DNA of 64,000 nt from Syntrophales bacterium. GTDB lineage: Bacteria; Desulfobacterota; Syntrophia; Syntrophales; UBA2210. The notes under the pieces were generated by a model. It ran no database searches. It was not told the origin of the DNA and saw only the letters and a list, made by a program, of their open reading frames with translations. Of this stretch, positions 1-56,972 are shown piece after piece. The stretch is taken from the NCBI GenBank assembly GCA_963662405.2, contig CAXXKT010000001.1, forward strand, positions 1,824,001 to 1,888,000, given 5' to 3'. Within the stretch, counting starts at the first letter, position 1. Each line of letters opens with the position of its first letter. A program made the position numbers and the translations under genes.

Positions 1-2081
1 AATGGATCGGCGATGAGGTAGAGGGTTGCGACCACCGCGATCCAGAGGACGGCGATCATGACCTGTCTCTGTGTGCCGATTTTTCCGGCAATCAGACTCC
101 CAAGCCCCGAATAGACCAGGAAGGAGCCGATGACGACGATGGCGGAGAAGACGGGGTCGTACAGATACCGGATGAACTGCTGGAGACACGCCATCTCCAG
201 GAGCATATAGGCCAGGCCGAGGGAACCGAAATAGAGCAAGACGGGGACCTTCCCGCGCGTTTTCTCCCCGCCTATCCCGATGGGAAGGATAATCAGGGTC
301 AGACTCAGGATGGCCAGAACCACGAGGGCCGTCCAGAGGAGGAGGTACCCCCAGTCGATCAGGGCAATCGAGACCCGCCCGTAGGGGATGAGATACTTTT
401 TAATGATATCCTTCTTGAAGGTATGGGAGAAGAAGGGGCGGTCGTCGGTGGCGGGGCGGACGAAGAAAGGGTACGCGTCGTAGAAGCGCTGTCTCTCTCC
501 CGCGAGAAGCCGTGTCGCGGCGGTGAAGAAATAACTCTCGTCGAGCCGGTTGACGAGATTCGTCTCCTCACGTGTGATCCCGGGGTAGTAGCAGAGGTCG
601 AAGAGGCGCTCCCTGCAGAAGATTTTCACGGTTTCTAGCTGTTCCGGTGTGAAGGGGCCCTCCTTGACCAGGATGGTCGCCGTCTGCCAGCTCCTGATCA
701 TGACGATCGACCCGCAGGCCTTTGCGGGCCCGAGGGCGGCGATCGCCGTTGCCAAGATCTTGATCGAGTCGCGGGGCGGATTCTTGATCCACCGCGATAT
801 GCAGAGGATACCTCCCGGCGCAAGCCGCTCCCGTGCGGTCCGGAGGGCGTCGGTCGTGAAAAGGTAGTTTTCATTCAGCGAGTAAACACCCGCCGCGGCA
901 GACTCCATCGATTCGAGGAGGCTCATCTGGATCAGATCGAACCGCTTCTCCGTCCGTTCCAGGTATCCCCGGCCGTCCTCGACTATGATCCGGGCGCGTG
1001 TCGGGTCGTAGAGGCCACCACTGAAGGCGCGGTACTCTCCCTGCATGAGGCGAACGATCTCCCGGTTCATCTCCACAATGGCTATCTCCCGCGACCCGTG
1101 GTGGCGGGCGCTGATGACCTCCGTCCCCCCACCCCCACCGATGACGAGGACCGAAGGCCTGTCCAGAAAACAGTAGGGGAGGGAAGTCGTACGCCATTCC
1201 ATAGAACGCGTATCACCGCCGGTTGCGTTGATCGCTCCAGCCATGTCTCCGTTCAGGAAGAGGCCCTTCTGCTCGGGCAGGTCGAAGGGACAATTCAGAC
1301 TCAGGTCCGGGAGGTAGTGGTACACAGGGCTGCCCAGGACGGTGACGAGACCGAGGGGACCGAAGACCTCCGTCTCTACCCTCGCCCCCGCCTGGCTCCG
1401 GGCAACGGAGAGGTCTTTGAATTCGCTCATCCCCACCGGCCTGCCGTGCAGGAAGGTGAAATAGAAGGGTATCGTTGCGATCAATGCGATTGTCGTGACG
1501 ACAATCCCCCCGCGGCCCTCCGCTGCCGCAAGAGAGGCGCAGAGGATGATCAGCGAGAGGATCAGGATAATCTCGTACGGTCCCAGGCCGAAGAAGGAGA
1601 GAAGGATCGGGAGGGTCCCGACGCCCGAGCCGGCCAGATTGGCGAAGTAGATCCGGTGGATCTCGCCGGTACAGACCGCGAGACTGAGGTCCACGCACAG
1701 GGCGCCGATAAAGAAGGGAACCAGGAGGGAAAGGCTCAGGGCGAGGAGACCGAGCACCTCCCGTGGCTCCCAGATGATCATCAACGGGTTGAAGGCGATC
1801 ACCTCTCCCAGGAAGACGGAGCCCCAGAGGGCGATGACCAGCACGAAGGGAACACAATACAGGATTGTCTTGAAATGTCGCTCCAGCCACTCACGGAAGA
1901 GGAAGATAAACGAACCGCTCGCCCCGAAGCCGATCAGGGCGATACTGACGATCAGGGAGGCAAAGTGGTGCCAGTAGCGGATGGCAAAAATCTTGAAAAG
2001 GAGGATCTCATAGGCGATCAGGGCGGCCGAGACGAGGAATACGACGGTCTGGACCCGTCTGATGGAGAGGGAGGAATCCAT
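1..2081 (-). CDS. Membrane protein fused to a spermidine-synthase-like SAM-binding domain (3' end runs off the window)
   Basis: Not in the ORF track because it is truncated. Manual translation from ATG 2081: MDSSLSIRRVQTVVFLVSAALIAYEILL...HHFASLIVSIALIGFGASG, several TM helices, then VLVIGGGGGTE, IVEDGRGYLE, FDLIQMS, ENYLFTT. Starts 3 bp after pcm. Confidence 0.8.
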   Translation of the reverse strand, partial: MDSSLSIRRVQTVVFLVSAALIAYEILLFKIFAIRYWHHFASLIVSIALIGFGASGSFIFLFREWLERHFKTILYCVPFVLVIALWGSVFLGEVIAFNPLMIIWEPREVLGLLALSLSLLVPFFIGALCVDLSLAVCTGEIHRIYFANLAGSGVGTLPILLSFFGLGPYEIILILSLIILCASLAAAEGRGGIVVTTIALIATIPFYFTFLHGRPVGMSEFKDLSVARSQAGARVETEVFGPLGLVTVLGSPVYHYLPDLSLNCPFDLPEQKGLFLNGDMAGAINATGGDTRSMEWRTTSLPYCFLDRPSVLVIGGGGGTEVISARHHGSREIAIVEMNREIVRLMQGEYRAFSGGLYDPTRARIIVEDGRGYLERTEKRFDLIQMSLLESMESAAAGVYSLNENYLFTTDALRTARERLAPGGILCISRWIKNPPRDSIKILATAIAALGPAKACGSIVMIRSWQTATILVKEGPFTPEQLETVKIFCRERLFDLCYYPGITREETNLVNRLDESYFFTAATRLLAGERQRFYDAYPFFVRPATDDRPFFSHTFKKDIIKKYLIPYGRVSIALIDWGYLLLWTALVVLAILSLTLIILPIGIGGEKTRGKVPVLLYFGSLGLAYMLLEMACLQQFIRYLYDPVFSAIVVIGSFLVYSGLGSLIAGKIGTQRQVMIAVLWIAVVATLYLIADP

Positions 2082-2084
2082 GGG

Positions 2085-2807
2085 TTATTCATGACTCCCG
2101 GTGAGGGGGACGAAGCGCACCGCCATCAGGTTTTGGGTGGTGATCCTCCCGGTCCGGTCCTTTTCCACGAGGACAAGACTCTGGACCATAAAGGGACCGC
2201 CGACCGGGATCACCATTCTCCCCCCCGGTTTGAGCTGCCTCAGGAGGAGGGGCGGGATGTGCCCGGCCGCGGCGGTCACGATGATCGCGTCGAAGGGGGC
2301 ATGTTCTTCCCAGCCGTAGTAGCCGTCGGCATGCCTGACCGTGACGTTGGTATACCCCAGATCCTCCAGCCGGTGTGCGGCCGTCTTCGCGAGCTGGGGT
2401 ATGATCTCGATTGTGTAAACGCTCTTCGCAACGGCCGAGAGGACCGCGGCCTGGTACCCCGACCCCGTTCCGATTTCGAGGACCGTGCTCTCCCTGCTTA
2501 CCCCGACGATCTCCGTCATATACGCCACGATATACGGTTGAGAGATGGTCTGCCCGAAACCGATGGGGAGGGGCGTATCGTCGTATGCCTCGGCCACTAA
2601 TCTCTCGGGGACGAACCGGTGGCGGGGGACGGTGCTCATCGCCAGGAGGACCTCGTGGTTCGTGACCCCCCGCCGGGCGATCTGATATTTCACCATTCGC
2701 TCCCGCATGGACGCAAAGGCGGTCTCATCCGGCTCCGCTGCGGGTACATCCCCCGTAATGAGTAGTATCAGGAGCAGTATGACGCCTGTCGTTCGAATCA
2801 TATGCAT
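2085..2807 (-). CDS. pcm: Protein-L-isoaspartate O-methyltransferase with an N-terminal signal-like segment
   Basis: GQTISQPYIVA, VLEIGTGSGYQAA, APFDAIIVTAAA, QLKPGGRMVIPVG. Confidence 0.95.
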   Translation of the reverse strand: MHMIRTTGVILLLILLITGDVPAAEPDETAFASMRERMVKYQIARRGVTNHEVLLAMSTVPRHRFVPERLVAEAYDDTPLPIGFGQTISQPYIVAYMTEIVGVSRESTVLEIGTGSGYQAAVLSAVAKSVYTIEIIPQLAKTAAHRLEDLGYTNVTVRHADGYYGWEEHAPFDAIIVTAAAGHIPPLLLRQLKPGGRMVIPVGGPFMVQSLVLVEKDRTGRITTQNLMAVRFVPLTGSHE

Positions 2808-3011
2808 CGGTTTGTGGTGGGTCGCGCTGTTAGCCCCGCTTTATATCCGTCACGGGAAGGAGAGAAGATGCGTGCTGCGCTGAACGATTGTAGTCGATGG
2901 GCGGGGGGAGTTTGAACCTGATGACCAGTATAACGCGTACGGTCGTTATTTCAAGTCATAAAAAGGCGACCTGACGGCGAAGCCGATTCACTTTTGTTTC
3001 GAAATTACGTA

Positions 3012-3040
3012 TTGACAAACAAATATCCCCCTCCTATACT
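3012..3040 (+). promoter_or_regulatory. sigma70 promoter of the transglutaminase-like gene
   Basis: TTGACA-17 bp-TATACT. Confidence 0.7.
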
Positions 3041-3101
3041 CCCCTTCCTTAAAGAAAGGCCGTTATTAAGGATGGCCTCTGAACAGTTGAAGGAGTTATT
3101 C

Positions 3102-3746
3102 ATGGATGAATATTCACAAGCCACCGCTGCCATAGAATCCCAGCATCCGCTGATCGTGGCGAAGGCCGGCGAAGTGGTAGGGGATTCAGCCACGGATCGT
3201 GACAAGGTGGTACGCCTCTTTGCATTCGTGCGCGACCGGATTCCCTATAACCTCTTTATGATCTCGATGCACCCGGACGATTTTCGGGCGTCATTCATAC
3301 TGGAGTCGCAGAAGGGGTACTGCGTACAGAAGGCCGTCTTGCTGTGCGCCCTTGCCCGGGCAGTCGGGGTCCCCTCCCGACTGGTACTGGCACGGATCCG
3401 CAACCATCGCGTTCCTCCCGCGCTTCGAGCCCGTCTGGGGCGCAACGAATTTCCCGGTCACGGCTACAATCAGTTCTACATCGACGACCGCTGGGTATCC
3501 GCGGCCGCCACCTTCGACGCCGCCCTGTGCGCACGGATCGGTGTGCCGGTGGTGGAATTCGACGGTTACAAAGACGCTACCTTGCCGGATAAGGGCCTGG
3601 ACGGAGAGCCATATATCGAGTATCTTGAGCAATACGGGTACTTCGCCGACCTCCCTCTCGATTTTATCACCGAGCGTACCTCAAAGATCTGGGGATGGGA
3701 GAAACGCTCCTGGCTCCGTCCCGAGGATGATACCGGTTTCCCGTGA
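3102..3746 (+). CDS. Transglutaminase-like family protein
   Basis: GYCVQKAVLLCALARAVGVPSRL, HGYNQFYIDDRWV; AGGAG RBS before ATG 3102. Confidence 0.85.
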   Translation: MDEYSQATAAIESQHPLIVAKAGEVVGDSATDRDKVVRLFAFVRDRIPYNLFMISMHPDDFRASFILESQKGYCVQKAVLLCALARAVGVPSRLVLARIRNHRVPPALRARLGRNEFPGHGYNQFYIDDRWVSAAATFDAALCARIGVPVVEFDGYKDATLPDKGLDGEPYIEYLEQYGYFADLPLDFITERTSKIWGWEKRSWLRPEDDTGFP

Positions 3747-3812
3747 GTTAGAGACCTTGCGATTTGTGAAGGATGTGCGCTATTGAAAGTCCCTGCCGGT
3801 GCGGATCGCCGG

Positions 3813-4793
3813 TCAGCCGGTGTGCTGTGCCTGTAGGTGTCCCTCGGGCTTTGCCCCGTCGGAGGTCTGTCGCTGAAGGGGCTCTGCCGTCACCCCGTTC
3901 TTCAGGAGATACCCTTTCAGTCCGCGGATGCTGTTACCGATGAATTCCTCCTCCCTGACCTTGATGTCGTCCGGGAGGAGAGGATAGCTCTGCATGCAGG
4001 GGTCCTGGGCAAGGATATCGTTAAAAACGTCTTCCTCGCTGAATTCCCCATTCCTCCGGAGACGTGTTTCCATGATGTCGAGCCAGAGGGGGATCTGCGC
4101 TCGGGCGTGCCGGAACAGGTTTTCAGGGTCGCGCCGGAGCCCGTAGTGGGCGAAGCAGACCGTTGCAATGTCGAGAGAGGCAAGCTTCTCGAAAGAGTCG
4201 CGCTGTATCTCAAGGTTGAAGACGGGCGGTGTGGCCGGACGCAGGTACAGGCCCTCCCCGACGGGGCAGGTAACGCCGATGGTTTCACCCGCGAAGAGAC
4301 AGTCCCCTTTCAGAAAAGACAGGTGGTGGGGTGAGTGCCCCGGCGTCTGAAGGACCTTGACCGGCCCGGTCTCCAGTTCTATCGTTTCGTGAAAGGCAAC
4401 ACGCTCTTCCGAAATCGAGGCGATATTTCCGTACAGCTCCGCGACGGACCCCAGGACCTCCTGCGATGCCTTCCACAGTTTTTCCGGGTGCACTACATGG
4501 GTGATACCCTTTGGGTGACAGACGACCTTAGTTCCGGGATAGTCATCCATGATGAGTCCCGCTCCCCCGGCGTGATCGATGTGGATGTGTGTCAGCAGGA
4601 TGTACGATATTTTTGTGACCCCCAGCCTTCTCAGGGCCTCTTTCAGGACGGGGATCGTCGACCGAGGGCCGGGATCGATGAGGATGACCCCGCCCTTTTC
4701 GCGAATCACCCAGCTGCTGATGAAGTACCGGAACCCCTCCCGGGGCTGGTCAAGGTCGATGAGAAACAGACTGTCGCCGCAATCGTGAAGCAT
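3813..4793 (-). CDS. MBL-fold metallo-hydrolase
   Basis: THIHIDHAGG, TPGHSPHH. Confidence 0.9.
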   Translation of the reverse strand: MLHDCGDSLFLIDLDQPREGFRYFISSWVIREKGGVILIDPGPRSTIPVLKEALRRLGVTKISYILLTHIHIDHAGGAGLIMDDYPGTKVVCHPKGITHVVHPEKLWKASQEVLGSVAELYGNIASISEERVAFHETIELETGPVKVLQTPGHSPHHLSFLKGDCLFAGETIGVTCPVGEGLYLRPATPPVFNLEIQRDSFEKLASLDIATVCFAHYGLRRDPENLFRHARAQIPLWLDIMETRLRRNGEFSEEDVFNDILAQDPCMQSYPLLPDDIKVREEEFIGNSIRGLKGYLLKNGVTAEPLQRQTSDGAKPEGHLQAQHTG

Positions 4794-5044
4794 GGAGGGC
4801 CTTTCTGATGTGTCCCGCGCGTGATATCGTTCTGTGAAGAACGAACAGTGCCCCTATAACACGTGTCGGGAAGGCAGACAAGGCCGACTTCCAAAAACTG
4901 TGTGGGTTTTTGATGGAGAGCAGGATACCTCCCGCAATTTTCAAACTTCCGCCGGGCTTTGTTTGAAAAAAATCGTTTTTGTTCGTTGTATGTTTGTTGA
5001 AATTATTTGAGAGTCAGGTGGTTATAATTTCACTGAATATTTCT

Positions 5045-5077
5045 TTTGATAATCATTTGATAATCATTTGATAATCA
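5045..5077. repeat. Tandem repeat, 3 x TTTGATAATCA
   Basis: Three perfect 11-bp copies seen directly. Confidence 0.9.
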
Positions 5078-5126
5078 TTAACGTCGCCATCTGCCGCGGC
5101 ACGTCGGCAGTATGGCATTGTTGGGT
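5076..5126 (-). mobile_element. attC-like integron recombination site (51 bp)
   Basis: Minus strand: ACCCAAC-AATGC-CATACTGC-CGACG-TGC-CGCG-GCAGATG-GCGAC-GTTAATG, i.e. R''/spacer/L''/hairpin/L'/spacer/R' with two extrahelical bases, 25 bp past the kinase stop. Confidence 0.75.
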
Positions 5127-5151
5127 TCTGGTTATCTAATTGTGCAGACGG

Positions 5152-6744
5152 TCATGCGGTTGTCTCTGGTGAGTCCGGTTCCACAAAGTGATCCCTTGCG
5201 CTGATCCAGCGCTTGCGTAAACTCTCCAACTGGGGTTCCTGGGGCACTAATTTCCGGACTTCGTCCAACAGATTACAGGCTTGGGAGTACCGCCCCGCCA
5301 GCCACGCTCTGCTCGCGTCGTTCAAAACACGACATGCTTGGATCACTTTACCCCCATCGTCAACCTGCTCTTTCATTTGCCCGTCATAGGCACCCAATAG
5401 CCGTAGCCGTTCAATACTGGTGTTGAGGATTTCCGCCTTCGCCTCAACGTCACTGAAGAGCTTCTTGGGTTCCGGGTCCCAAAATGAGAAAGAAGGCCAT
5501 AGGCAGTCCGCTGTGATGCTCTCGTGGTGGCCTAGGACGAACCTGACGACCAATCTGGACGCTTCGACCAGTAGATCCGTGTCCTCTCGGGTGCAGTCCT
5601 TCCTGCACATTCGGTGAAGCGCTTTCGACAGGTGGTGCACACGAAGAGTGCTTTCGAGAGAAGCCACGCCCGCTTCTACCGTGTCTTTGAGGCGTTTTCT
5701 AATGTCTGCTTGTACGGACTCTCGTTGGCCAGGTATTACGGCAAGTCTCAACTGTCTGCCAATTTCATCTTCTAACTCACAGTATGTAGAGAGGTAATCG
5801 AAATATCTAAAGAGGAGTTCGAGTTGTTCAAGAGTGTTGGGGTTTAATGTCTTAAGGATACTCGCCAGTCGATCGTAACAACGCTGAAACGGGGGACGCT
5901 TACTTGGGTCAGCAGCCAACATTTGTGTTACCAAACTCACCAGTTCTTGAGCCTGGGGGACTACTTGTGCAGGAGCAAAATGTCTTTCCCCTTCAATGGT
6001 CCATTTCTTCAGCTTTGAGCCTTTCCATTTCCACACCTTTGGACCTGAGCCTTTCACTGCAGGATGATAGCCCTGATACAGCTCTGCGATCACCAGCCCT
6101 ACCCCGAATATGTCAGGAGCGAATGCGTCGTACAATTTGGCGTCATGCTGTTCGGGACCTTTGTAAGCATTGCTTCCACCCAAATGGCTGTCGTGCCAAG
6201 CGTTTGCAACCCCAAAGTCTGCAATTCGGACGGAGTACTTCACCGAGGGATCAACACCCGGAGGTGGAAACCCTTGGAATTTCCGACTCAGGTCTATGTA
6301 AAGCAGATTCTCGGGTTTCACGTCTTGATGGTGTTCCATGCCACGATTATTCGCAACTATCATTCCCTTCACTATCTGCAAAGCCAGGCAAACCACACCT
6401 GTCAGACTTTGTTCTTGTCCCACCAACCTGCTGAGGTCGCCATCACAATACGGCATACAGATTAGCGGAACACCATCCCAGCTTTCGACGAAGATCGGCT
6501 TGATTACAAGCGGATGGCCCGCAAAATGGAACCAGCTTCGAGCCTCCCGCTCGATCCGTTCGGTGTCAATGGAAACGTTGCTTTCGAATTCCTGGATGGT
6601 CTTATAGGCGACGCGTTTGGGATAGACGTTCTGTTTGTGTTCGACAATATAGATCAATCCACCTCTTCCTTTCCGCCGCTCTATTACCTTGCCCTTGAAG
6701 ACCGTCATCTCTAGCAACGTCTGAGTGTGCTTATTCCAAGGCAT
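5152..6744 (-). CDS. Hanks-type Ser/Thr protein kinase with a helical C-terminal region, in an integron-like cassette
   Basis: GRGGLIY, VAYKT, HQDVKPENLL, ADFG, YKGPEQ, DIFGVG; AAAGGA RBS before ATG 6744; lower GC than flanks. Confidence 0.85.
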   Translation of the reverse strand: MPWNKHTQTLLEMTVFKGKVIERRKGRGGLIYIVEHKQNVYPKRVAYKTIQEFESNVSIDTERIEREARSWFHFAGHPLVIKPIFVESWDGVPLICMPYCDGDLSRLVGQEQSLTGVVCLALQIVKGMIVANNRGMEHHQDVKPENLLYIDLSRKFQGFPPPGVDPSVKYSVRIADFGVANAWHDSHLGGSNAYKGPEQHDAKLYDAFAPDIFGVGLVIAELYQGYHPAVKGSGPKVWKWKGSKLKKWTIEGERHFAPAQVVPQAQELVSLVTQMLAADPSKRPPFQRCYDRLASILKTLNPNTLEQLELLFRYFDYLSTYCELEDEIGRQLRLAVIPGQRESVQADIRKRLKDTVEAGVASLESTLRVHHLSKALHRMCRKDCTREDTDLLVEASRLVVRFVLGHHESITADCLWPSFSFWDPEPKKLFSDVEAKAEILNTSIERLRLLGAYDGQMKEQVDDGGKVIQACRVLNDASRAWLAGRYSQACNLLDEVRKLVPQEPQLESLRKRWISARDHFVEPDSPETTA

Positions 6745-6825
6745 GTGACTAATTCCTTTTAATCCTGTGTGACAGGAAGTCAGTGCCCTTGAGTAGGCGG
6801 GTATCTGCATCTTCGTTTGCATGAT

Positions 6826-6890
6826 GCCCAACCTGCTTATATAGTTTCTGTATAAAAACCGAACACATCGATTTCACCGTATAAAACCCC
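6826..6890 (-). mobile_element. Putative attI-like site / cassette 5' boundary
   Basis: GTTGGGC core at 6832-6826 complements the attC ACCCAAC at 6 of 7 positions; AT-rich upstream with GTATAAAA(A)CC direct repeats at 6850 and 6879. Confidence 0.5.
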
Positions 6891-7037
6891 TCGAAGACTT
6901 GTTAAGGATACCGTCGTATGCAATTGCCATAGGTACACATCTATAGAAATCTCCCATTTATGAGGGGGTGTTATGCGGAAACCGCATAATACCCCTTTTC
7001 GAGGGGTGCAGTCATGATATTAATCCGGCAGTTCACG

Positions 7038-7196
7038 AAAAACAAAAGCCCCATCTCTCGTTTTGAGAAACCGGGCTTTGATGACCAGACCATAATCACT
7101 CCCATGGCTATAGCTGTTTACAAGCAGTTGAAAATTGCATAGAGATCAAAACTAATAGGCAAATAACGCTATGATGATGTGTTGTCAAGAGATTTT
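7038..7196 (-). ncRNA. Copy A of a dispersed promoter/micro-ORF/terminator element (putative sRNA or attenuator)
   Basis: Aligns with 56781-56934; TTGACA, MQFSTACKQL* at 7140-7108, terminator AAAGCCCGGTTTCTC-AAAAC-GAGAGATGGGGCTTTT. Confidence 0.55.
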
Positions 7197-7409
7197 GCCG
7201 GGGAATTAAGAGGACGTAACACCTGATCCCCAACCTTTCATACGCGAGAACCTACGATCTTCAGGAATCCAGAGAGAACAATGACGATTGTGTCTCATCG
7301 GCAAATTAATGAAAAAAAGAGAAACAACAGCGCTCCTGATTAAGAAATGAAATATTTCATACCCTGTGCTATAAATCTTGCAACGCAGTACTGAGGGAGG
7401 GCTTCAAAG

Positions 7410-7619
7410 ATGACCAGAGAATTCAATGTGGTAATCGAACGTGATGAAGACGGTTATTTTGTCGCGTCCGTCCCCGAGTTGCGGGGATGTCATACTCAGG
7501 CCAAATCTCTCGATACGCTGATGGAACGTGTGGAAGAGGCCATAGATCTCTGTTTTGAGGTCGAGGAACCTGTATCGAACGAATTCATCGGTATTCAGCG
7601 TGTCGCCATCTCCTCATGA
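7410..7619 (+). CDS. hicB: HicB family antitoxin (short form)
   Basis: VVIERDEDGYFVASVPELRGCHTQAKSL. Confidence 0.9.
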   Translation: MTREFNVVIERDEDGYFVASVPELRGCHTQAKSLDTLMERVEEAIDLCFEVEEPVSNEFIGIQRVAISS

Positions 7620-7840
7620 GTAAATTCCCTCCGCTTACCGGGTCCCAACTTGTCAAGGCCCTTCGAAAACATGGTTTTGAAGTGATCCGAACAAAGGGCA
7701 GTCACCATTTCCTGCGTTATCCTGATGGTAGGAGAACCGTCATACCGGTGCATCGCGGTGAGGCGATCGGGTGCGGACTCCTCGCTCCAATCCTGCGGGA
7801 TTGCGAACTTTCCCGGGACAAGTTTCAGGGACTTCTTTGA
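7616..7840 (+). CDS. hicA: HicA family mRNA interferase toxin
   Basis: LRKHGFEVIRTKGSHHFL...TVIPVH; ATGA overlap with hicB. Confidence 0.9.
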   Translation: MSKFPPLTGSQLVKALRKHGFEVIRTKGSHHFLRYPDGRRTVIPVHRGEAIGCGLLAPILRDCELSRDKFQGLL

Positions 7841-8036
7841 AAAAAAGTAGCAACATTCAACTCATCTTCTGACACCTCTTCAACCCCGGTCTTGTCATTC
7901 CTTGGGATAAGAGGCATAATAGGCTATCCTACAGATTACAGGCTCAGATCGAACGCGAAGCGGATTCTGACCTCACCGTGCCGGACCGTATAACAACGAT
8001 ACCTCCGCTCCAACGGCGGTAGAAAGGAAACAGGAG

Positions 8037-9608
8037 GTGCATATCGTGAAAGGGCGTGAGCAAAAATTCCGTTTCAGGATAGTCATCCCGGCCTACCCGG
8101 CCTTCAATATCTACTCCCGGATTGCGAAACAGACAACGGCCCTGGGGCCTGTCTGTGTGGCCACGGTCGTCAGCACAATGGACGGGTGGGATGTCGAGAT
8201 TATTGATGAGAACAATTACCGCAAGTTCGGTCCGCGGGATGAGACCGGTCGTCCCGATCACAACACCCTCCACACCATCAGGCACGCTGATGTAGTGGGC
8301 CTGTACGGGGGGCTGAGCAGCACGGTCCCGAGGCTCTATGAACTGGCCCGATTTTACCGAGGACAGGGCGTCACCACGATTGCCGGCGGCCAGCATTTCA
8401 TCGGCGAGAATATCCGTGAAGCGCTCGACAACGGAGTCGATTTTGTCGTTCTGGGTGAGGGGGAGGATACCGTGCGTGAGCTGCTCCAGGTGCTGCGGGA
8501 GGGTGGTTCCCCCGATCGGGTTGCCGGTATTGCCTATCGAGAGGACGGGCGGGTCGTGCAGACCGCACCACGGGGGGACATCACGGATTTCGACAGTCTG
8601 CCCCTCCCCGATTTCAATCTCCTTCGCTACGCGAAGATCAAGCTGTATCCGATCAGTTGGGTCCGTGGTTGTGGGATGAACTGCGAGTTTTGCACGGTGA
8701 AGGGAAAAGCACGCCCCTCTTCGGTCGAGCGCGTTGTCGAGCAGATCAGTTCTCTCCTGGAGAAGCGCGGCGCGCGGCATTTCTTTATTGTCGACGATCT
8801 GTTCGGCTACCGGCGTGCCGAATCCCTGCGGCTGTGCGAGATGCTGGCCCACTATCAGAAGGCCGTCGGGACGCGGCTGGATATCACCGTGCAGATCAGG
8901 CTGGACCGGGCCAAGGACGCGGAGCTGCTCCAGGCCATGCGAAGCGCGGGGATTACCATGGTCTGTATCGGCTTCGAGTCGCCCATCGGGGAGGAACTGG
9001 CGGCCATGAACAAGAAGATCAATCCGGAGGAGATGCGCGCCATGACCGCGCTGTATCACAAGGCCGGGTTCCTCGTGCACGGCATGTTCATCTTCGGGTA
9101 TCCCCTCCCGAAGGGCGTGGGGGTGACGATGCCCGCCAGACAGCAGGTACGACAGTTCCGGTCCTTCATCAGGAAGACCCGGATCGATACCATCCAGGTC
9201 CTGCTTCCCGTTCCCCTTCCCGGTACGGAGCTGACCGAACGGCTCCGGGCGGATAACCGGATCTTTCCGAGAGACTGCATCGGATGGGAATACTACGACG
9301 GGAATTTCCTGCTCTTCGAGCCGGACGAACCGCTCACGGCGGAGGAGATGCAGACCGCGATCGGAAAGATCATGGGCCGGTTTTACCGGTTCCGGTATAT
9401 GTTCGCGATCGCGGGGAACGTGCTGATCTTTCCGGCCATGGTGTTCTCGCTGTGGAATATCAAATTCGGCTGGGGCAAGTGGTATCGGGCCTGGCGGAAC
9501 GATCTCATGCGCTTCGGCGGCTGGATCATACTCAGGCGCTGGCGGTCCGAGTTCAAAAGAAGCGCGTTTTTTGGAAAAGCTCAGGGAGGCCGAGCAGAGG
9601 CTTCGTGA
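8037..9608 (+). CDS. B12-binding-domain radical SAM protein
   Basis: IAGGQH and VVLGEGE (B12-binding domain); RGCGMNCEFC (CxxxCxxC); TTGTCA-17-CATAAT promoter at 7892-7920. Confidence 0.9.
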   Translation: MHIVKGREQKFRFRIVIPAYPAFNIYSRIAKQTTALGPVCVATVVSTMDGWDVEIIDENNYRKFGPRDETGRPDHNTLHTIRHADVVGLYGGLSSTVPRLYELARFYRGQGVTTIAGGQHFIGENIREALDNGVDFVVLGEGEDTVRELLQVLREGGSPDRVAGIAYREDGRVVQTAPRGDITDFDSLPLPDFNLLRYAKIKLYPISWVRGCGMNCEFCTVKGKARPSSVERVVEQISSLLEKRGARHFFIVDDLFGYRRAESLRLCEMLAHYQKAVGTRLDITVQIRLDRAKDAELLQAMRSAGITMVCIGFESPIGEELAAMNKKINPEEMRAMTALYHKAGFLVHGMFIFGYPLPKGVGVTMPARQQVRQFRSFIRKTRIDTIQVLLPVPLPGTELTERLRADNRIFPRDCIGWEYYDGNFLLFEPDEPLTAEEMQTAIGKIMGRFYRFRYMFAIAGNVLIFPAMVFSLWNIKFGWGKWYRAWRNDLMRFGGWIILRRWRSEFKRSAFFGKAQGGRAEAS

Positions 9609-9735
9609 CTTCGCCCACACAAATGTGACGGACAGCCGGTAGTGGCCTGCGGCGGACCGATAGGGATTTACACCGGGAGCCCGGTTTCTTTCAAAAAACC
9701 GGTGCACCACAACCATGTGACGGAGGATTAATACG

Positions 9736-10557
9736 ATGACATTGCGAGCTGAGATGAGAAACATGGCCCTTTTCTGTGACTTCGAAAATATCGCCCTGGG
9801 CGTCCGCGACGCGAACTACGCGCAATTCGACATCGACAAGGTACTTGAGCGTCTCCTGCTCAAGGGGAACATCGTGGTGAAGAAGGCCTACTGCGACTGG
9901 GCGCGCTACAAGGAATTCAAGGCGGCGATGCACGAGGCCTCCTTCGAACTGATCGAGATCCCCCACGTGCGCCAGGCGGGGAAAAACTCCGCCGATATCC
10001 GGATGGTCGTCGATGCCCTCGATCTCTGCTACACGAAGGAACATGTGGATACCTTCGTCATCATCAGCGGCGATTCCGATTTTTCCCCGCTTGTGAGCAA
10101 GCTGCGGGAGAACAACAAGATCGTGATCGGTGTCGGCGTCAAGAACTCGACATCGGACCTGCTCATGGCAAACTGTGACGAGTTTATCTATTACGACGAC
10201 CTCGTCCGCCGCCAGCCAGCCCGCAAGAAGCCCCCCGCCAAGGAGGGGGCGCGAAAACCGGCCCGGAGCGCGGCCGCCAAGGCCGCAAAGGCCGGGGAGG
10301 ACAGGAAGCAGGAGGCATGGGATCTGATTGTCGAGACTTACGAGGCCCTTGTTGAAGAACGCGGGGAGGAAGAAAAGATATGGGGTTCCATGATCAAGCA
10401 GACCCTGAAGCGTCGCAAACCCGGCTTCAGCGAGTCCTACTACGGGTTCCGCTCCTTCGGACAGCTTTTGGAAGAGGCGGAGGCACAGGGGATCCTCGAT
10501 CTGGAACGGGAGGAAAAGTCGGGTGGCCTGATCATCAAGAGCTTCCACGTTTCATGA
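9736..10557 (+). CDS. NYN (LabA/DUF88) domain protein with a C-terminal OST-HTH/LOTUS-like domain
   Basis: LFCDFENIA, GKNSADIRMVVDA, ISGDSDFSPL, YYGFRSFGQLL. Confidence 0.9.
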   Translation: MTLRAEMRNMALFCDFENIALGVRDANYAQFDIDKVLERLLLKGNIVVKKAYCDWARYKEFKAAMHEASFELIEIPHVRQAGKNSADIRMVVDALDLCYTKEHVDTFVIISGDSDFSPLVSKLRENNKIVIGVGVKNSTSDLLMANCDEFIYYDDLVRRQPARKKPPAKEGARKPARSAAAKAAKAGEDRKQEAWDLIVETYEALVEERGEEEKIWGSMIKQTLKRRKPGFSESYYGFRSFGQLLEEAEAQGILDLEREEKSGGLIIKSFHVS

Positions 10558-56737: not shown

Positions 56738-56780
56738 TAACTTTTCTCAGATGACGGCTCGTCACTTGGGCCGGACAGCG

Positions 56781-56934
56781 AAATCTCTTGACATTACATC
56801 ACCATAAAGTTATCAGGTTAACGATTTGATCTTGATGTTATTTTCTGTTTGCGAACGGCTGTAACCAAAGGGGGATTATGGCCTGATCATCAAAGCCCTG
56901 TTTCTCAAAACGAGAGATGGGGCTTTTGCTTTTT
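56781..56934 (+). ncRNA. Copy B of the dispersed promoter/micro-ORF/terminator element
   Basis: TTGACA at 56788, MLFSVCERL* at 56835-56864, terminator at 56892-56934; homologous to 7038-7196. Confidence 0.55.
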
Positions 56935-56972
56935 GTCATAGAAAAGATTGGTATGCGAAGCCGCGAGACACA

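Follow-up and report, generated by a model that had tools for sequence, protein, structure and literature searches.

Within a window of 64,000 nucleotides from the genome of a sediment bacterium of the order Syntrophales (C1:1824001-1888000, where C1 is the contig), a protein kinase gene lies between a docking site that has no integrase gene beside it and a hairpin of 51 nt. Taken together, the gene and the hairpin constitute, with high probability, one single-gene integron cassette. The cassette region is read on the minus strand, and its principal features are the following.

6826..6832, minus strand: GTTGGGC, the recombination core at the cassette start, its G belonging to the docking site and its TTGGGC to the cassette; it agrees with the reverse complement of the R″ box ACCCAAC at six of seven positions
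5082..6831, minus strand: the gene cassette, 1750 bp, from the TT of the upstream core to the G of the attC R′ box, its ends placed by a covariance model and a four-copy comparison
5152..6744, minus strand: the kinase open reading frame (ORF), 530 amino acids plus stop, with its ATG at 6744 and its stop codon at 5154..5152
5076..5126, minus strand: the attC site, 51 nt, matched by the covariance model and beginning 25 nt after the stop codon

A first-pass annotation of this DNA had read the gene as an integron cassette closed by a very compact attC, and the words on which that reading was built all occur where it placed them: GTTGGGC upstream (6832..6826), with ACCCAAC (5126..5120) and GTTAATG (5082..5076) downstream. 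The ORF and the attC are co-oriented, with a G|TT crossover on either side of the cassette. A leader of 87 nt, containing an AAGGA ribosome-binding word, separates GTTGGGC from the ATG. The first possible start in the ORF listing, a TTG at 6831, was rejected as the kinase start because the first residue of the homologues falls where the ATG at 6744 lies; those aligned all start there or have unrelated extensions.

Read from 5126 to 5076, the site is ACCCAAC-AATGC-CATACTGC-CGACG-TGC-CGCG-GCAGATG-GCGAC-GTTAATG. The canonical attC geometry claimed for it is indeed present: R″ (7 nt), a spacer of 5, L″ (8 nt, with one extra base), CG-A-CG, the loop TGC, CGCG, L′ (7 nt), a spacer of 5 and R′ (7 nt). 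R″ fits the consensus RYYYAAC at 7/7 positions and R′ fits GTTRRRY at 5/7; L″ and L′ pair at seven of seven positions around one bulge, and R′ and R″ pair only through AAC/GTT. Moreover, the reverse complement of R″ (GTTGGGT) matches the cassette-start core GTTGGGC at 6/7 positions and its own R′ at 3/7, in keeping with the earlier observation that R″ is closer to the cassette start than to its partner. Folded as single-stranded DNA, the site reaches −13.3 kcal/mol, whereas shuffled sequences average −6.4 (z = −3.98; none of 200 shuffles equalled it). Its bottom-strand extrahelical bases, T29 and T36, lie on the same arm with N6 spacing, the spacing described as best excised (PMC3053210). The word "compact" was also well chosen, since 51 nt is shorter than all 14 of the genome's own sites used for training (55–67 nt), and it falls below the 57–141 range given for classical attC sites (PMC3053210).

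A geometric scan of the genome yielded 1770 raw matches, of which 31 passed energy and R″ filters. The 31 include the candidate, together with clusters directly downstream of both integrase genes of the genome and co-oriented with them; successive array sites carry the signature of cassettes, a GTTCGAT end being followed by an ATCGAAC start and a GTTGGGC end by a GCCCAAC start. A covariance model, R1, was trained on 14 of the genome's own attC sites, the candidate not being among them. RNAalifold recovered 13 pairs in the training alignment, and 8 of the 13 show compensatory changes. R1 accepts 5076-5126(-) over its full length at 31.0 bits (E 7.5e-5, filters off). When R1 was run over the whole genome, 150 of the 1141 candidates from the first look were scored; the sites listed at E ≤ 0.1 number 23, comprising the 14 training sites and nine untrained ones (27–34 bits), five of which fall within the two intI-linked arrays; interpolated between these listed matches, 31 bits corresponds to about E 0.004 genome-wide. 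Rfam (4227 families), searched over 3500-9000 with E up to 10, placed no family at the attC and returned only a chance snoRNA match. By its geometry, fold and covariance, the hairpin at 5076-5126(-) is evidently a real attC.

The upstream end of the cassette abuts a region with three further features.

6833..6860, minus strand: attI-like core GGTTTTTATACAGAAACTATATAAGCAG, directly 5′ of GTTGGGC and ending at the crossover
6964..6995, plus strand: hairpin with a second, inverted core word (TTATGCGGAAAC... in the window, TTATACAGAAAC... in the other copies), its position kept in all four copies
7030..7200, minus strand: repeated non-coding leader, 165 nt, identified as blastn repeats and aligning with the leaders of two other platforms

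The attI-like core has three other copies in the genome, at C1:30462(-), C1:2673542(+) and C2:287986(-), each of which ends in ...ATATAAACAC(C/T)-GTT. As far as G|TT the four resemble one another, and directly behind it they are unrelated. The copy at C1:30462(-) lies about 175 nt behind the stop of a broken intI and ahead of its array; two of the three other copies are followed by a ribosome-binding site and an ATG within about 15 nt of G|TT, and the copy at C2:287986(-) has an attC-like, gene-less stretch after it. In all four, including the one behind the broken intI, the inverted core word recurs about 130 nt upstream of the core, and changes in its stem are both-sided. The region upstream of the kinase is, as far as these comparisons go, of attI-site anatomy with a first cassette in place, and GTTGGGC is therefore the true cassette start; the annotated start word coincides with the G|TT end of the four-copy repeat.

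The leader repeat recurs at 56778-56936 of the window, blastn gives about 38 further matches across the genome, and numerous copies occur in relatives of the same family. In the copy at 7030-7200 a TTGACA-like word stands close to the 5′ end and a T-run comes after a hairpin, which gives it the look of a promoter with a short terminated leader. Rfam gave no match to the repeat, and a promoter scan returned the number of sites expected by chance; among the public sequencing runs listed, none of RNA was found to hold the locus. Several leader-repeat copies lie near attC clusters. A "repeat B" of the kind found at the genome's other platforms was searched for behind the cassette, and only a 23-nt match was found.

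The only integron integrase that the genome encodes intact is at C1:2211990-2212934 (open frame of 355 amino acids; TIGR02249 score 471 bits, cut-off 265), about 380 kb from the kinase cassette. A second integrase gene, at C1:30608-31553, is split by a TAA stop. A search upstream of the intact intI yielded no array; the arrays are on its downstream side and share its orientation. Both integron regions (C1:2211990-2228822 and C1:20786-31553) have the array downstream of a co-oriented intI, which is the "inverted" integron layout. An IS3-type transposase gene begins about 140 nt behind the intact intI.

In the closest relative, genome G005, different genes follow the same neighbouring metallo-beta-lactamase-fold gene, and across the genus, to judge from this comparison, the locus appears to be a cassette region of variable content. 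Contig C224 of that genome (locus L024) carries two attC sites, at 2986-3046 and 3696-3760 (41.3 and 24.1 bits), on the strand opposite to that of the window cassette. An empty site was sought in G005, where the contigs break at the locus and no empty site is readable.

The cassette is probably of foreign origin, as three observations indicate. The GC fraction is 0.47–0.50 in the block 5001-8000 as compared with 0.57–0.60 in the flanks; the C-terminal domain of the kinase (described below) was found in 0 of 60 relatives (seven from its genus, another 29 from its family and 24 from its order; completeness 70–100%); and homologues of the kinase occur in other phyla. A sediment-metagenome contig of 2311 nt, about 98% identical, has the same order of neighbouring gene, attC, kinase and docking-site core. 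It differs by deletions of 22 nt and 3 nt, the first of which removes two of three short repeat units at the attC.

5048..5080, plus strand: three tandem 11-nt units (GATAATCATTT), beginning within the attC R′ box and extending past the cassette

One unit is left in the metagenomic contig, and the copy number of the units at 5048-5080 is thus, by this comparison, evidently variable in nature.

The cassette encodes one protein, which divides into two domains.

5878..6669, minus strand: Hanks-type kinase domain, residues 26-289, identified by Pfam Pkinase (PF00069), with Foldseek returning protein kinases
5182..5871, minus strand: family-specific all-helical C-terminal domain, residues 292-521, eleven helices, modelled with a predicted local distance difference test (pLDDT) score of 87.5

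The cargo is, by its profile match and conserved residues, a Hanks-type (eukaryote-like) Ser/Thr protein kinase. Pfam Pkinase matches residues 26-289 at 75.5 bits (cut-off 31.7), and none of the catalytic residues varies among the 33 proteins aligned: G26-R-G-G29, K48, E67, H139-Q140-D141, K143, P144, N146, D176-F-G178 and E198. The earlier description of an HQD (non-RD) kinase is fully borne out by this alignment. The AlphaFold2 model of the whole protein has a pLDDT of 91.6 and a predicted template modelling score of 0.87.

That the helical C-terminal half has no recognised fold, as the first-pass annotation held, was confirmed when AlphaFold and Foldseek gave no specific match. The best Foldseek E for the domain was 0.028, to designed helical repeats and tetratricopeptide repeat (TPR) proteins; the best VIA match had a Z of 9.0, on a scale where unrelated helical proteins can reach about 13. 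Pfam found neither TPR nor PknG_TPR on the protein. A profile of the domain matched 33 proteins among 1.84 billion representatives, and 20 of the 33 were compared with Pfam: 15 have an N-terminal kinase, two are short pieces without a match, and three are TPR proteins that match only profile positions of about 150–225, in several repeats. From this search and the Pfam check of the 20 proteins, the domain seems to be private to the kinase family, with a TPR-like last third. A KEN/HEPN-like nuclease in the C-terminal half was also considered, prompted by IRE1 as the top match of the whole model (E 9e-10, root-mean-square deviation 20 Å), and was dropped because that half has no invariant Arg or His.

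A search for relatives of the kinase returned 38 full-length proteins of 39–99% identity and 517–567 amino acids (one of them a 374-residue partial), followed by generic kinases at 50 bits or less. Their source names include Halomonas, Vreelandella, Cyanobacteriota, Caballeronia, Pseudomonas, Nissabacter, Providencia and E. coli, the nearest (68–73% identity) coming from Halomonas, Vreelandella and Cyanobacteriota. The C-terminal domain is present in a single copy in its own genome, and the E. coli homologue occurs in 4 of 5426 complete genomes. The kinase family is, in these collections, evidently rare and patchy. A literature search by accession of the E. coli homologue found no paper.

The closest parallel to the window cassette is found in a Halomonas metagenome-assembled genome (locus L031), where 7980-9632 aligns with window positions 6766-5102 at 73% DNA identity, a stretch that begins 22 nt ahead of the ATG and ends midway through the attC. 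R1 detects a site there at 9608-9667, 6 nt after the kinase stop (21.8 bits, E 0.01), and a further attC upstream at 6841-6945 (21.9 bits). The boxes of the two kinase-linked sites align (ACCCAAC, GCCAT, CCGACG, GATG and GACGTT); the window loop is 8 nt shorter, and the 5′ half is homologous. Beside the Halomonas cassettes, at 511-6345, lie genes for a HEPN_LA2681 protein (148 bits) and a 248-residue tyrosine recombinase that, at 27 bits (cut-off 265), does not count as an integron integrase. Since an attC accompanies the Halomonas homologue and the other loci have none or a weak one, the gene evidently moves both as a cassette and by other vehicles.

With regard to defence, three of 10 distinct homologue loci (E. 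coli EC1515, L039 and L044) have strong known defence neighbours. The E. coli EC1515 homologue lies in an integrase/AlpA/YfjI island, with Gabija (GajA, 703 bits; GajB, 439) and the PDC-S35 TIR protein (201) on one side and Septu PtuA (435 bits) and PtuB (262) on the other. The L039 homologue adjoins DruE (260 bits; Druantia). The L044 homologue is near PDC-S26 (254), PDC-M09A (91), a ThsA-like SIR2 (87; Thoeris-like) and a CARF_ADA-like deaminase (127 bits). At 8325-10719 of L044, the CARF_ADA-like adenosine deaminase, a Ham1-family NTP pyrophosphatase and the ThsA-like SIR2 stand in a row by the kinase homologue; this row could be an operon of defence genes. The other homologue loci contain an insertion sequence element, P4-type and other integrases, and RES, NOV_C and HEPN_LA2681 genes. 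No neighbouring gene is common to the 10 loci. These defence contexts are suggestive of one-gene defence.

Known kinases offer several points of comparison. Stk2 of Staphylococcus is said to be an abortive-infection kinase that a phage cue switches on and that then phosphorylates many cell proteins. The logic proposed for the window kinase is the same, a likeness of function; the domain architecture and host phylum of Stk2 differ. PD-T4-6 was reportedly described by Vassallo et al. in 2022 as a one-gene kinase defence system. Like the window protein, PD-T4-6 of E. coli is a stand-alone Hanks-type kinase found on mobile islands without a conserved partner, whereas its profiles cover the kinase core of the window protein and not the 230-residue C-terminal domain, and the E. 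coli member of the window kinase family scores only 36–40 bits. PknG-type kinases share with the window protein the order of a kinase followed by a helical, TPR-like C-terminal domain.

Presumably, the distant IntI inserted the cassette through attI × attC recombination and could still excise it, with transcription of the cassette starting from the repeated leader that precedes the docking site. The C-terminal domain, helical and TPR-like, would act as a sensor that keeps the kinase off until a phage-derived cue arrives, whereupon the kinase, as effector, would phosphorylate host or phage proteins and so stop the infection, a course of events described for Stk2 and proposed for PD-T4-6. The pairing of a sensor domain with an effector kinase is drawn by analogy with these two.

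As regards the cassette itself, a number of points tell against the interpretation given here. The second extrahelical base of the attC is T; the usual one is G (PMC3053210), and of the own-genome training sites 12 of 14 have a top-strand C (bottom G) and one of 14 an A (bottom T). The same scanner picked both the R1 training set and the candidate, the short calibration of R1 makes its E-values rough, and the candidate is not in the whole-genome R1 list drawn from the 150 candidates scored. A 6/7 word match within a few hundred bases has an estimated chance of 0.2–0.5 and is weak alone; the covariance model and the four-copy comparison of the upstream junction are what lift the two cassette ends above coincidence. 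R1 at E <1 found no attC at eight metagenome loci or at the Pseudomonas locus L033, and in a Cyanobacteriota metagenome-assembled genome (L032) it found a weak site of 42 nt (23.4 bits), 195 nt after the stop. Several GTTGGGATCC-type words follow the kinase gene there, at 9640-9830, and the weak 42-nt match may belong to another kind of repeat. The Halomonas attC folds no better than shuffled sequences (−4.3 kcal/mol, z 0.15) and may, to judge from this, be decayed. No circular-cassette or empty-site junction was found in public contigs, which cannot reveal rare forms. Were the hairpin a terminator or a chance palindrome, with the GTT words coincidental, its isolation would be understandable: R1 has no other match below E 1 in the window (the next reach 11.8, 9.8 and 9.6 bits, E ≥ 2.6, the best of them at E 2.6 and 43 kb away), and none, intact or decayed, between the kinase and the hicBA genes beyond the docking site. 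Its place directly behind a gene is also the usual one for terminators. Yet the stem has no T-run behind it, and a terminator scan of 4700-7450 gave 0 sites; the site matches, over its full length, a model trained on intI-linked sites; both bulges lie on one strand with N6 spacing; the upstream GTT is the exact-base end of the four-copy docking-site repeat; and a homologous site stands behind the Halomonas homologue. This explanation is very improbable indeed. A cassette captured once and since fixed, its docking site decayed and IntI no longer moving it, is a better contender, if still an unlikely one. Among the four copies of the attI-like core, that of the window diverges most and its spacer before G|TT is shorter by one base, the R′ box (GTTAATG) pairs with R″ through only three bases, the metagenomic contig has the same arrangement, and the intact intI is far off with a transposase gene directly behind it. 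On the other hand, the attC has kept its stem, which is much more stable than its shuffles, and a mismatched R′ is expected in any integrated cassette, because the TTxxxx of R′ derives from the insertion target. Integrases acting in trans on cassettes without a nearby intI have been discussed, moreover (Cury et al. 2016, PMC4889954). The cassette reading therefore stands on the attC model match, the attI-like crossover upstream, the intact IntI in the genome and the homologous attC in Halomonas; by each sequence criterion examined, 5082-6831(-) is an integron cassette, and it is fairly likely to be mobilisable still.

The function of the kinase is a more finely balanced matter, and here too there are observations on the other side. 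Bacterial Hanks kinases have many further roles. The first-pass annotation had named PADLOC as a check on its proposed single-gene defence system, and the matches obtained (raw profile scores) are limited to the kinase core: the window protein reaches 73.6 bits with mad6, in the kinase core only and less than the 75.5 bits of the generic Pfam Pkinase, and at best 57.5 bits with PD-T4-6, at positions 11–258 of a 311-position profile, again the kinase core. Seven family members score 71–87 bits with mad6 and 37–64 bits with PD-T4-6. NCBIfam has no family above its cut-off for the window protein; MAD6 (NF047741) gives 25.1 bits against a cut-off of 460, and no MADS partner genes are nearby. Seven of the 10 homologue loci have no strong PADLOC neighbour, and one of these, L041, has weak TmtA/HmaA matches of 24–29 bits. 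Plasmids, phages and viral contigs yielded no homologue. A real cassette with another accessory role (a signalling or stress regulator, a growth-arresting toxin-like kinase, or an effector against other cells), whose defence neighbours merely reflect shared mobile hotspots, is accordingly a serious possibility, though one well short of an even chance. Integron cassettes carry functions of every kind, and the seven loci and the core-only matches just described would suit such a role. The nearest ESM Atlas clusters of the C-terminal half are PknG_TPR, from a regulatory kinase, a lead only, as the score of 0.78 is below the level that excludes shuffled sequences and cross-matches to TPR proteins are confined to the last third of the domain. 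The type IV secretion system effector kinase LegK1 is matched weakly as well (NCBIfam, 35 bits against a cut-off of 550). Against another role stand the lack of a conserved partner or substrate gene, the single copy and extremely patchy distribution, which a housekeeping regulator would not usually show, the three independent loci that lie directly among validated defence systems, and the absence of a signal peptide or secretion-system context in the annotated loci. An anti-phage role for the kinase, supported by genomic context only, has a little less than an even chance. For the joint reading, in which a kinase cassette with a 51-nt attC sits at the G|TT of an integrase-less attI-like site and the kinase is likely anti-phage, the odds are about even. 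A fuller version can be offered only tentatively and is rather doubtful: the gene as founding member of an unrecognised one-gene anti-phage system that joins an HQD kinase to a private helical sensor, crosses phyla as a cassette whose attC is among the shortest that work, and relies on one integrase acting in trans for many integrase-less docking sites.

Integron cassettes encoding phage defence have reportedly been presented by Darracq and by Getz, both in 2025. The window cassette resembles those of Kieffer 2025 in carrying a compact single-gene cargo, the role of the window kinase being a predicted one. The main texts of two integron-defence preprints, one of them Kieffer 2025 (10.1101/2024.07.02.601719), make no mention of a kinase cassette, and the supplementary cassette lists could contain kinases; the word "kinase" in those main texts refers to phage T7 gp0.7 only. 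The locus can also be compared with attC-site clusters that have no integron integrase (CALIN) and with single attC sites (Cury et al. 2016, PMC4889954), which it resembles in being a promoterless unit of one ORF closed by an attC, with no intI next to it and an IntI elsewhere in the replicon. A CALIN is defined by two or more attC sites (PMC4889954), whereas the window locus has one, and its attI-like docking site, still recognisable and preceded by a repeated leader, sets it apart from most CALIN described.

In this locus there is a candidate new defence family that can be put to the test. Should the kinase prove protective against phages, it would represent a defence family missed by current detectors and present in E. 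coli, Providencia, Pseudomonas, Halomonas and cyanobacteria, and the window would hold a clean 1.75-kb single-gene defence cassette outside Vibrio and the clinical integrons. Whatever its function, the cassette is a well-delimited natural substrate for the minimum working length of an attC and for the action of IntI in trans on orphan attI platforms.

Just past the platform, at 7410-7840 on the plus strand, a HicB (30 bits) and HicA (62 bits) pair is encoded, divergent from the cassette and within the same low-GC block; an 81%-identical copy of hicBA is present in genome G013.

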